Position numbers and translations under genes: made by a program. From a virus, in the IMG/VR virus record IMGVR_UViG_3300031857_000136: a stretch of 64,000 bases of DNA. One strand, 5' to 3'. Under the pieces are notes generated by a model. It made no database searches and was not told the DNA's origin. It worked only from the letters and a program-made list of their open reading frames with translations. Every line of letters starts with the position of its first letter. Position 1 is the first letter of the stretch. This document shows positions 10,785 to 24,179 of the stretch, piece after piece.

Positions 10785-13700
10785 TTATTTACAAGGTCCT
10801 TTTTTGAAGTTTAAATTATCATTTTCAGTAGTAGGAGATATATCATATACGTAAAGTTTACCTTTACCATTCATCCAATCTTTAGTTTGTTGATATAGAA
10901 GATCGTTTACAGTTGCATATCCTTCAGACTTAAGCATTGCTTCTTTACCTCCAGCTTCTTGAATTGAAAGTAGTCCTCTATTTGTCACTGTAAAGTTTTG
11001 TCCACCAAAGTTAACTGTAGCTGATTGACCAACAGGAATTCCTATGTTTTCAAATTCTCTTTGACTTCTTGTAGTGGTAGTCTTTTTACCAGCTTTAATC
11101 TTTTCAACATTAGGACTAGTCATTGCTATTCCCTTAACTTCAGTAGGAGTACTAGATAGTGCGTTATTAAGCTGTTCTCTCCAATTAGCATCTGCCATAT
11201 TAATTGTAGGAATACCTTTTAATCTAGCCATTTCTACAGCTTGTCCTGTTCCACCTTCAGGTCTAACACCTTTGGTTTCTTTAGCATAGAACAATACAAA
11301 GTCTACAGGTTTGTTAAGATTATCACCAAACACTTGGTTAGTATTTCTAGCCATAAGCTTTAATGCGCCTGGACTTAAAGCATTTGGATTTGGATGCATC
11401 TCCTTAGCAATAGCTTGTTCTCTTGGTCTAGATCCTTGATTTTCAGGAGAGAACAAATTCTTTTTATTAGTACCATCATCAAATGCCTTATCAGCACCTT
11501 CTTTATTTCCTCTAAATGTAACTCCTGTGTTTAATGTATACCCTTTACGTTCAAGTTCTCTTGCCACCTCAGTCATTTGTTTAAGAACTGCTGGAGGAGT
11601 TTGTCTTGAACCAATACCTGCATAAGTCATATTTTGTTTAGCTGATTTACTAGGAAGTTTGTTAAACTCTGGTTTACCTGGATATTCAGTTTTAACATCT
11701 GCTGTTATCATTCCACTAGGAGTTGGTTTGGTTTTTACTTTGCTACCATCTAGGAACTTGCTAATAATCACGTTGTTATCAACATCTTCCACCTTCATAA
11801 AGCCGTTCTCTAATACAGACTTGTGGTCTGTTGCCCAGAACTCGTTAGCTCTAAAGCTATCTCCCCAAGCGTTGATAGCTTTGTAGACAAAGTATTTCTT
11901 ACCATCGTAAGCTGTGTGCTCAAGGGCTGTATTATAATTGTCATACACCTTCTTGAACAAAGCCTTGTTGATGTAAGAATAATCAGCAGCTCTACGCATT
12001 TCAGCTTTTTTAGCAGCAATAGCTTTATATACATTCCTATCTGCTATAGCTTTGTCTAGCTCTTCCTTTGTAAGAACATCCTCTTGCTTCTCCCATGTAT
12101 AAACAATATAATCGGAGTTAGCCTCTCTGTTCATTTTAGAACGAGTGAGTATAGGAGGAATATCATTAGTAGCCATGGCTTGTTTAACAGCATCTGGTAA
12201 GAACTTCATAGATGGGTTGTAATGCATTCTTCCTGCACCAGTCGTAATAAGAGCTGCTTTCAGATAAGGAACTACATCATCGTTATTCCAGTTATTTCTC
12301 TGGAATACACCCAGCTTATAAAAGTCCTCTAAGTTAGACATTCCTTCTAACTTAGACAAAGTTTTATTGTACACATCTTCAAAATCTTCATAAGGAAGTA
12401 AGTTAGTAAAAGATATTGGAGATGGAGATAGTCCACTTTGTAGAACAGCTAATAGCTTAATTCTTTCATACAATGGATTATTCTCACCCTTTAGATAATC
12501 TCTAAGCTCACGGAAGGCATAGATCACATTGTTTTGATCGTACACTTTGTTCTCTCCCATGTTCAACTTAGCGTTGTTAGGACCACCAGCAGCAGCTCTA
12601 ATAGAAGGTATACCCTCTATAATATCTATTACATGGTTTCCATATAGAGGATGTTCTCTTCCTTTACTCTTAACTTCATTTACAAACATAGCCACTTCTC
12701 TACCAACACCACCATCGTTAACCAATATATCTTTGACCATCTCGTTTAACTTTTGGTCAGTCTGTACTGCCCAGTCAAACAAGTCATTAACAGCTTTCTG
12801 TGCTAGCTTTACAAAGTCTCTATCGCTAGTTTCTACATAAGGAAGCAACACCTTTTGGATTACACTTCTCACCTTAGGACTGTCAGACTTGATGATTTGA
12901 GCAAATGCATCTCTAACGCTGTTCACTGTTTCAGCAAGCTTGCCTATGAAAGAATTAGCAAGAAGTGTATCTACAGAACTGATGATAGTATTCTGAGCCT
13001 TAATCTGTTGCATTTGTTTCTTGAACACTAAATAAGGATCGTTAAATGAAGATGTATCATAGTTAGAACCTTGTGTTACATGGAACATTTGCTCACCCAT
13101 CTTAGCGTATTTCAAGAACTCTTTAAGCATCAGATACTGGTCCATCTTCTCACTATTGGTCATATCAGCAGTGGTCTTACCTACGTTGTTCTTAAGAACG
13201 GTTTCTCCAGGAATTCTGAATGCAGCCAGTCTTTCTTGTAATTCAGCTTCTGTCATGTCTTGTTGATACACCTCAGACATGTCTTTTACAAACGTGTCCA
13301 TGAATAGCCAAGAGTAACCAGCGCTTTCTATATTTCTAAGGTAGTCACGAATGATTGGCTGGTTCATGAAATAAGCCACAGTCTTTACAGGAACACCTGC
13401 CTTAATTAAGAATAACCATGTAGAAGCTACGTTTGGTGTAGCACCAAGTTCCATAATCCATGGGCCCTTAGAGATGTCCACATAACCATCAATGAACATA
13501 CCAATGATGTCAGAGATGTATTCTCCTGCCTTATTAGTAATCATAGATAGGGTGGGTACCATCTTACCATCCACCTCGATTGCATTATACTTATCAAACC
13601 TAATATCAGCATTACCTAACCAGAATCTATCCTCTTCAGATACACGACTTAATCTACTCTTATCTATGTAGATAGGTTGACGTTGATTCAATGAGTGGTT

Positions 13701-24179: not shown

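Follow-up and report, generated by a model that had tools for sequence, protein, structure and literature searches.

A probable crAss-type two-barrel RNA polymerase built into a 4,464-residue giant protein of a crAss-like phage

The closest described system to the one reported here is gp66 of Cellulophaga phage phi14:2 (PDB 6VR4; Drobysheva et al., Nature 2021), a separate 2,180-amino acid (aa) protein which is packaged in the virion and performs magnesium-dependent, rifampicin-resistant transcription of early genes (gp66 preprint/paper); gp67 of the same phage is also a virion protein. Alanine substitutions showed that each of the three aspartates in the gp66 motif DFDID is required for RNA synthesis (bioRxiv 10.1101/2020.03.07.982082), and the fourth position of this motif is Ile or Val throughout the crAss-like phages (gp66 literature). 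The gp66 paper also describes a cleft-blocking domain through which the enzyme inhibits itself, and it reports that the orthologs of gp65, gp66, and gp67 are fused into a huge polyprotein in some phages. In PhiCrAss001, three RNA polymerase (RNAP)-associated proteins are capsid cargo and must partly unfold to pass the tail (PhiCrAss001 structure paper). We analyzed IMG/VR virus record IMGVR_UViG_3300031857_000136, a 64,000-nucleotide (nt) stretch of DNA (hereafter, the window), whose minus strand carries at 10785..24179 a single open reading frame (ORF) of 4,464 aa with an ATG start and no internal stops. This giant is very probably a crAss-type single-chain, two-barrel, DNA-dependent RNA polymerase of the gp66 family built into a giant cargo protein; where gp66 is a separate protein, the giant is a fusion in which a gp67-like virion protein comes first, the gp66-like RNA polymerase follows, and DprA-like and ASCH-like domains close the chain.

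The RNA polymerase module

Residues ~2386 to 3983 of the giant (nt 12231..17024, minus strand) are homologous to gp66 by sequence and by modeled structure, with every conserved active-site element intact, and in an hmmalign mapping this RNA polymerase body corresponds to gp66 434–2026. When the C-terminal half of the giant was used as a tblastn query, it matched g066 of phi14:2, annotated as "Catalytic RNA polymerase subunit" (E 3e-20), as well as genes annotated "putative RNA polymerase" in a large number of Bacteroides crAss-like phages, and BLASTP aligned residues 2708–3619 with gp66 817–1666 (E 2.9e-25 over 969 columns). A profile built from 27 metagenomic homologs found a sole match in the PDB, 6vr4_A (E 3e-111). 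This profile included one gp66-like sequence; rebuilt without that member, it recovered gp66 at E 7.6e-44 in two segments, gp66 434–1121 and 1175–1713. Sequence searches of Pfam and the PDB with the whole giant returned nothing useful, and piecewise Pfam and NCBIfam scans gave only sub-threshold coiled-coil noise.

The catalytic Mg-binding motif DFDID lies at aa 3297–3301 (nt 14277–14291, minus strand) and is identical to 1361-DFDID-1365 of gp66; with Ile at its fourth position, it has the DFDxD form, Ile or Val at position 4, of the gp66 family. The bare pattern DxDxD is uninformative, as shuffling the giant yields 1.28 occurrences on average and the giant itself contains a second instance, DYDKD, at aa 778. 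The significance of the motif comes from its sequence context: the octamer GSDFDIDK is identical in the giant and in gp66 (1359–1366), and G3295, D3297, D3299, I3300, D3301, and K3302 are invariant among 72 aligned homologs.

The published element boundaries of gp66 were carried onto the giant through a profile alignment (hmmalign), and all of the elements lie on the minus strand. The first double-psi beta-barrel (DPBB), which is beta-subunit-like, falls at aa ~2900–3004 (nt 15168..15482), where it aligns just upstream of the gp66 Connector and forms a cluster of beta-strands in the model described below. The connector between the barrels (aa 3004–3185, nt 14625..15170) maps to gp66 Connector 1095–1238, and the second, beta-prime-like barrel, with the catalytic loop, occupies aa ~3185–3320 (nt 14220..14627). 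The bridge-helix equivalent (aa 3467–3497, nt 13689..13781; gp66 1529–1559) is helical in the model and contains invariant K3482 and A3489; the trigger-loop equivalent (aa 3554–3592, nt 13404..13520; gp66 1598–1636) contains the invariant V3567-D3568 of GYVDISKGP. The giant has the gp66-family arrangement of two double-psi beta-barrels in one chain, joined by a counterpart of the ~140-residue connector of that family. Invariant lysines are found on the first barrel at K2909 (PLKP), K2933, and K2975 (GRKVGA), and just past it, within the mapped connector, at K3028 (GSQITK); each of the four aligns to a lysine of gp66. On the second barrel, R3258, P3260, and K3293 are invariant in addition to the six positions in and around DFDID. 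Conserved basic residues on the barrel without the DxDxD loop, a mark of the two-barrel superfamily, are therefore present in the giant.

We modeled aa 2690–3720 with AlphaFold2 from 72 sequences (mean predicted local distance difference test score [pLDDT] 84.3, predicted template modeling score [pTM] 0.84). A Foldseek search of the PDB with this model returned 6vr4_A (E 1.2e-28, probability 1.00, template modeling score 0.64), and the next 50 matches listed, with nonsignificant E values, were nearly all RNAP beta-prime, Rpb1, or phage beta-prime chains. A first-pass annotation, made from the letters of the window, had noted a DFDID at nt 14277–14291, about residue 3296, as resembling the RNAP catalytic loop, and had taken a DPBB fold around it and conserved basic residues from a second DPBB as what this reading requires. 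Its coordinates were exact, the residues being 3297–3301, and the resemblance is to the crAss-type DFDxD motif proven in gp66; the modeled core matches 6VR4 with both barrels mapped, and the invariant lysines were found on the first barrel.

The chance frequency of DxDxD, its second occurrence at aa 778, and the empty whole-protein Pfam search are what would be expected if DFDID were a fortuitous motif in a structural or cargo protein with no polymerase function. Homology extending over ~1,600 residues to a biochemically proven RNAP, a matching fold, and an invariant active-site neighborhood make that explanation extremely improbable.

Among two-barrel kin, QDE-1 of Neurospora, plant RDR2, gp96 of Thermus phage P23-45 (which is fused to a tape-measure protein), and the cellular beta and beta-prime subunits have no detectable sequence similarity to the giant. 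It differs from these other two-barrel RNAPs in having Ile rather than Gly at the fourth motif position and in its unrelated surrounding domains, and from the cellular enzymes in that its two barrels share one chain instead of being divided between subunits. The ~3,500-aa gp50 of phage N4 (Schitoviridae) is a functional analog which is nonhomologous to the giant, having a T7-like single-subunit right-hand fold and not a two-barrel one. The N4 literature describes gp50 as packed in the capsid, ejected into the host, and transcribing early genes.

Architecture, setting, and frequency of the fusion

The N-terminal module of the giant (aa 73–692, nt 22104..23963, minus strand) is gp67-like. BLASTP aligned aa 73–492 with phi14:2 gp67 39–416 (E 1e-11), aa 90–692 matched a 1,552-aa protein of Leptolyngbya phage Lbo-JY46 (E 1.5e-25), and in tblastn aa ~100–650 matched genes annotated as "putative RNA-polymerase subunit" from numerous crAss-like phages (E 3e-20 to 6e-12). 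Because of these matches, we assign the N-terminal third of the giant, on sequence grounds, as a gp67 ortholog. No transmembrane segment was found in this module at a Kyte–Doolittle 19-residue mean of ≥1.2. A highly charged stretch follows at aa ~750–1330 (nt 20190..21932, minus strand; K+R 20.8% and D+E 20.8% in aa 751–1000), which is probably coiled-coil; its Pfam matches are weak, sub-threshold, and of coiled-coil type.

Between this stretch and the polymerase lies a conserved module (aa 1889–2350, nt 17130..18515, minus strand) which contains the sequence HEVFH (aa 1936–1940, nt 18360–18374) and is homologous to cr108_1 gp054 1482–2422 and cr4_1 1980–2101. We considered whether HEVFH marks a zincin metallopeptidase, and this assignment was unsupported. 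The second His is replaced by Glu (HEVFE) in about half of close relatives. Members of the module alignment gave no match to Pfam peptidase families except for one at chance level to Peptidase_M9_N (E 0.016), which is an N-terminal noncatalytic domain. An AlphaFold model of the module, of moderate quality (pLDDT 72.7, pTM 0.52), showed nothing resembling a zincin sheet ahead of the motif helix, and a Foldseek search with it returned no match below E 0.4.

These results bear on the possibility that the giant is a polyprotein precursor, in which the embedded HExxH would free a gp67-like protein and a ~2,500-aa RNA polymerase, so that the full-length chain would not be the working enzyme. The literature calls fused gp65/66/67 polyproteins "likely cleaved" and proposes that a zincin domain in gp65 orthologs may activate the RNAP. 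Within the giant, HEVFH is close to the boundary between the gp67-like and gp66-like parts, HE[SA]FH is kept in cr108_1 and cr4_1, and an acidic motif, LAEEFRDY, occurs ~45 residues past HEVFH. Against this stand the Glu in place of the second His in about half of close relatives, the peptidase, model, and Foldseek results just described, and the 1,888-aa protein encoded downstream of the giant, in which the HExxH of its gp65-position orthologs is not present. For want of support for the one motif that could mark a protease, we regard cleavage of the giant as possible but rather unlikely.

Beyond the polymerase body, the giant ends in two small domains on the minus strand. The first (aa 4182–4344, nt 11148..11636) is a DprA-like, SLOG-type Rossmann domain which matches PHROG 768 at E 9.6e-42; the name is a predicted PHROG annotation and not functional evidence. 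In tblastn it matched stand-alone proteins of ~170 aa, many annotated as DprA-like, with a homolog in 1,151 phage records, and searches of Pfam, NCBIfam, and PDB sequences found nothing. The second (aa 4349–4453, nt 10821..11135) is a probable ASCH (PUA-like) domain, judged from its sequence, with a GxKTxTxR motif. A five-sequence profile of this domain gave weak, end-to-end matches in the PDB, with Escherichia coli YqfB 1te7 at E 0.005 and, as the others of the top three, N4-acetylcytidine amidohydrolase 9kyf (E 0.012) and PH0355 (E 0.18); the domain had no match in Pfam. An ASCH-like domain of the same type was also seen in one relative (P0014, aa ~540–650), inserted within the polymerase body before the conserved ETDGSGII.

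The gene sits at the end of a late structural operon. All large genes of the window are on the minus strand in late-operon order: large terminase (57986–60016), portal (55401–57986), major head protein (51896–53449), tail and other virion proteins, five large proteins (1,749, 288, 1,825, 1,266, and 865 aa), the giant, and the 1,888-aa protein. The start codon of the giant and the stop of the 865-aa ORF upstream of it share 1 nt, and the 1,888-aa ORF begins 5 nt past the giant's stop. The late block thus follows the tail genes, with the gp67-like part fused N-terminally to the polymerase and a gp65-position protein (matching cr108_1 gp052) downstream. This gene order bears out the first-pass placement of the gene after the tail genes among huge proteins, and the gp67-like and gp65-position neighbors support its identification as a crAss-like virion RNAP/cargo locus. 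In pairwise comparisons the terminase was 40% identical to that of Lbo-JY46, 33% to those of Cellulophaga phages phi17:2 and phi4:1, and 26–29% to crassvirus terminases, so that by terminase the nearest cultured phages are Lbo-JY46 and then phi17:2 and phi4:1. A nucleotide search of the window against deposited phage genomes gave no match, and no tRNAs were found in the window. In gene content, the phage is crAss-like.

The fused architecture is already known and common, and the giant is one more example of it. At least 486 relatives turned up when IMG/VR was scanned, and the 80 loci examined there yielded 66 complete RNAP-containing ORFs of 3,755–5,004 aa (median 4,278). A HMMER search of 1.84 billion cluster representatives (50% identity) returned 2,202 at E ≤0.001 and 722 at E ≤1e-30; among the best 150, most were 4,000–5,167 aa long with the polymerase at ~2,700–3,800. 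The initial suggestion of a fusion was thus correct (gp67-like plus gp66-like plus C-terminal domains), and the description "unusually large" holds relative to phi14:2 gp66 but not within this clade, where ~4,000–5,000 aa is normal.

Two named phages have the same fusion, in each case annotated as "hypothetical protein": human-gut crAssphage cr4_1 (Suoliviridae, RefSeq) gp26, 4,491 aa, with HEAFH at 2002 and DFDID at 3433, and cr108_1 gp054+gp053, 3,765 aa, which is split at the catalytic motif. Like the giant, both have an HE[AS]FH module, an RNAP with its catalytic loop, and a C-terminal Cys; they are 20–27% identical to it and lack the DprA-like/ASCH-like tail. The split in cr108_1 (NC_055878.1, 16413–16704) separates two annotated coding sequences, the first with ...KAGSD as its end and the second with LYDIDK as its start, so that the break lies inside DxDxD, with a 291-nt gap, and looks like an intron or other interruption such as occurs in some crAss-like groups (Yutin et al. 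2021).

One could suppose that the ORF is an artifact in which faulty assembly or sequencing ran two genes together, with the gp67-like protein and the RNAP really separate. In a related contig (L003) the region is in two frames, of 2,413 and 1,889 aa, and in a word-indexed protein database all homologs are ≤2,100 aa. These short entries are gene-caller truncations or come from frameshifted contigs: European Nucleotide Archive contig L004 has an intact 4,448-aa ORF where the protein database lists 1,870 aa, and homolog P0006 follows the window until a frameshift, past which the two diverge. The 66 independent intact IMG/VR ORFs, the 4,448- and 4,491-aa ORFs of L004 and cr4_1, and the predominance of >4,000-aa proteins among the best 150 cluster representatives all speak for a genuine fusion, as does the absence of a terminal-type Cys at the giant's internal junction, where split versions have one on each side (see below). 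We therefore give the artifact almost no credence and treat the giant as a true single ORF. The giants are systematically truncated or miscalled in public gene predictions, while the underlying contigs have ~4,400-aa ORFs, and some database homologs are misleadingly named "spore coat protein CotF" or "YeeX"; others are "hypothetical".

In the mechanism we envisage, the giant would be a late product that enters the capsid as cargo, as phi14:2 and PhiCrAss001 suggest; in a state at least partly unfolded, it would pass along the tail and reach the host before the DNA or together with it; and once refolded in the host it would transcribe the early genes of the phage without need of the host polymerase, with the C-terminal domains riding along as accessory activities. 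By analogy with those phages, the giant is probably present in virions and delivered into the host at the outset of infection. Several points weigh against this interpretation. Packaging, ejection, and RNA synthesis are ascribed to the giant by homology alone, and its identity to gp66 is only ~20–23%. No counterpart of gp66 residues 1–433, which include the cleft-blocking domain (aa 196–233), was detected in the giant or in the family profile; this may reflect divergence or a real difference, and the mechanism of self-inhibition may differ. The window shows neither early genes nor promoters that could serve the enzyme as targets. Finally, what the DprA-like and ASCH-like domains do can only be guessed at, and the ASCH assignment depends on the E value of 0.005.

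Terminal cysteines along the cargo block

The giant has one cysteine, Cys4463, which is its penultimate residue (nt 10791–10793, minus strand). This single Cys in 4,464 residues compares with an average of 0.6% Cys in the window's minus-strand ORFs and 2% in the tail proteins, and so low a content would suit a protein that has to thread its way along the tail. The large post-tail proteins are cysteine-poor as a set, unlike the 1,749-aa tail-side protein, which has 36: the 865-aa protein has none, the 1,266-aa protein has one, and the 1,825-aa protein (30682–36159, minus strand) has only four, all at its N terminus (C7, C9, C26, and C29; KCTCGH...VCHMCGK), which looks like a zinc ribbon. The 1,888-aa protein at the gp65 position (5113..10779, minus strand) has its sole Cys at residue 3 (nt 10771–10773).

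Across the gp67/gp66/gp65 block, the terminal cysteines follow the order of the proteins: one lies at the C terminus of the first, one at each end of the middle one, and one at the N terminus of the last (residues 3–6). This pattern held in every complete relative examined, including eight named phages. In phi14:2, the sole Cys of gp67 (1,797 aa) is its last residue, gp66 has only Cys 3 and 2179, and gp65 (1,421 aa) has only Cys 3. The corresponding three proteins of Kehishuvirus "tikkala" have a sole Cys 2309 (2,310 aa), Cys 5, 1334, and 2404 (2,412 aa), and a sole Cys 5 (1,349 aa); those of cr111_1 have a sole Cys 1636 (1,638 aa), Cys 5 and 2281 plus three internal ones (2,283 aa), and a sole Cys 3 (1,291 aa); and those of cr128_1 have a sole Cys 2384 (2,387 aa), Cys 4 and 2424 plus two internal ones (2,431 aa), and a sole Cys 5 (1,345 aa). 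In cr4_1, where the gp67-like protein is fused into the middle one, the 4,491-aa protein has Cys 4488 plus six internal ones and its 1,803-aa follower has a sole Cys 3; the 1,714-aa follower in cr108_1 has an N-terminal Cys5, as the window's protein has its Cys at residue 3. Cellulophaga phage phi17:2 has a 1,957-aa protein whose sole Cys is its last residue, a 517-aa middle protein, which is not an RNAP, with only Cys 4 and 516, and a 1,914-aa protein with a sole Cys 3. Lbo-JY46 has no middle protein; its 1,552-aa protein has a sole Cys as its last residue and its 2,748-aa protein a sole Cys 4.

The same was seen in the larger sets. All 66 complete IMG/VR giants have a Cys within their last seven residues, and the corresponding downstream proteins have one at residues 3–6 in 68 of 68 cases, which is the sole Cys in 60. 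The 66 giants contain 122 Cys in 283,757 residues, and most of the nonterminal ones are at a single second-barrel position; among 101 database homologs, 87 of 153 Cys are in the last ten residues. That second-barrel position, the column DGKRV[C/A]E[IV]M, corresponds to aa 3218 of the giant (DGKRVAEVMLGR, nt ~14526–14528), is Ala in the window, and is the only other recurrent cysteine of the family (Cys in ~43 of the 66). In fused versions, no Cys marks the internal junction. We also considered translational coupling or another nucleotide-level cause for Cys codons at gene junctions. This was ruled out, as the distance from Cys to protein end varies and the pattern persists in Kehishuvirus and cr128_1, where the gp67-like gene is on the strand opposite to the RNAP gene.

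A tentative explanation, which we entertain as a real possibility without expecting it to prove right, is that the cargo proteins are tethered head to tail through their single terminal cysteines, giving one linear chain. The presumed pairing would most simply be an intermolecular disulfide, or alternatively a shared metal; it would arise in the virion and be undone in the reducing cytoplasm of the host. A chain of gp67-like protein, RNAP, and gp65-like protein would then pass through the tail in set order, and a gene fusion such as that of the 4,464-aa giant would be the covalent equivalent of one tether link. Disulfides are documented in crassvirus virions, and the PhiCrAss001 structure paper gives them for other virion proteins only. 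The words "cysteine" and "disulfide" are absent from the text of the gp66 preprint, and a full-text literature search, whose incomplete coverage may have missed an earlier description, found nothing on terminal cysteines of these proteins; the end-to-end pattern is apparently undescribed. In the blocks of both Lbo-JY46 (19782–32688) and phi17:2 (17743–31247), the gp67-like protein and the chain of terminal cysteines are present, and DFDxD was not found in the large proteins. For this reason, the chain of cargo proteins seems to be older or broader than the polymerase that it carries.

The downstream protein and the variable C-terminal slot

The 1,888-aa protein that follows the giant is itself modular. 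It has an ADP-ribosyltransferase domain at aa 67–236 (ART-PolyVal PF18760, E 4.4e-11, above cut-off), a PD-(D/E)XK-type nuclease region at aa ~533–824 (PHROG exonuclease, E 1e-6), and BLASTP similarity to cr108_1 gp052 (E 5e-16); the cr4_1 follower has an ART-like region as well. Its first 73 aa resemble gp66 1–70 (34% identity, BLASTP), so that the Cys3-containing N-terminal module of gp66 is found in the window on this downstream protein rather than on the giant. Orthologs in two related contigs (L003 and L004) share aa 296–1886 and differ in their N-terminal modules, one of them having HELTH in place of the ART domain. The N terminus of this protein is therefore also a swap site, yet the Mx(x)C start is kept.

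At the far left of the window, an open frame of >1,660 aa (2–4990, minus strand) begins at about nt 4990 and is cut off by the end of the window. It is Cys-containing and repeat-rich, with a strong C-over-G skew on the plus strand, and has only a weak beta-roll-type Pfam match; it is possibly a fiber or spike protein.

A comparable variability is seen at the C terminus of the polymerase. After the last conserved motif, INAWGD, the giant continues for 363 residues, and its relatives for 64–354, mostly <150. About 10 of 69 relatives have a recognizable domain in this slot (NADAR, cpYpsA [SLOG], 2OG-Fe(II) oxygenase, His_Phos_1, DUF7831, Phage_30_3 [gp30.3-like], or RuvA_C), and most have just a tail of 64–150 residues with no extra domain. 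Relatives that are 84–91% identical in the polymerase, including the closest (P0001 and P0002), are without the DprA-like and ASCH-like domains. Among the relatives compared, the DprA-like/ASCH-like tail is thus, as far as their sequences indicate, a feature specific to this phage or its lineage. The slot domains are best read as co-injected accessory or counter-defense activities.

Iyer et al. (J Bacteriol 2017) reportedly described polyvalent proteins of phages and conjugative elements as giant multidomain proteins, delivered with DNA, with ART, nuclease, NADAR, SLOG, and peptidase modules. The window resembles these through the ART-PolyVal match of the neighboring 1,888-aa protein. It might accordingly be asked whether the giant is chiefly a carrier of such polyvalent counter-defense effectors, with the polymerase module reduced to a degenerate scaffold, a view to which the neighbor's ART-PolyVal and nuclease regions and the NADAR, SLOG, AlkB-type, and phosphatase domains in relatives' slots lend some color. 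We consider this very unlikely: all family-conserved catalytic and nucleic-acid-contacting positions are intact in the giant, and because most relatives have no extra C-terminal domain, the polymerase is the conserved core function. In this the clade differs from the polyvalent proteins, as its conserved core is a polymerase and most of its members carry no accessory C-terminal domain.

For annotation, the value of these findings is that they place a large, mostly environmental crAss-like clade in which the virion RNAP is a giant of ~3,750–5,000 aa fused to a gp67-like protein. The C terminus of the polymerase is a site at which small enzymatic domains are swapped, which would be injected with the first transcribing enzyme, and this slot is a plausible place to seek counter-defense functions. 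If the terminal cysteines are a true tether, they would provide a simple answer to how huge cargo proteins stay ordered and together during ejection.

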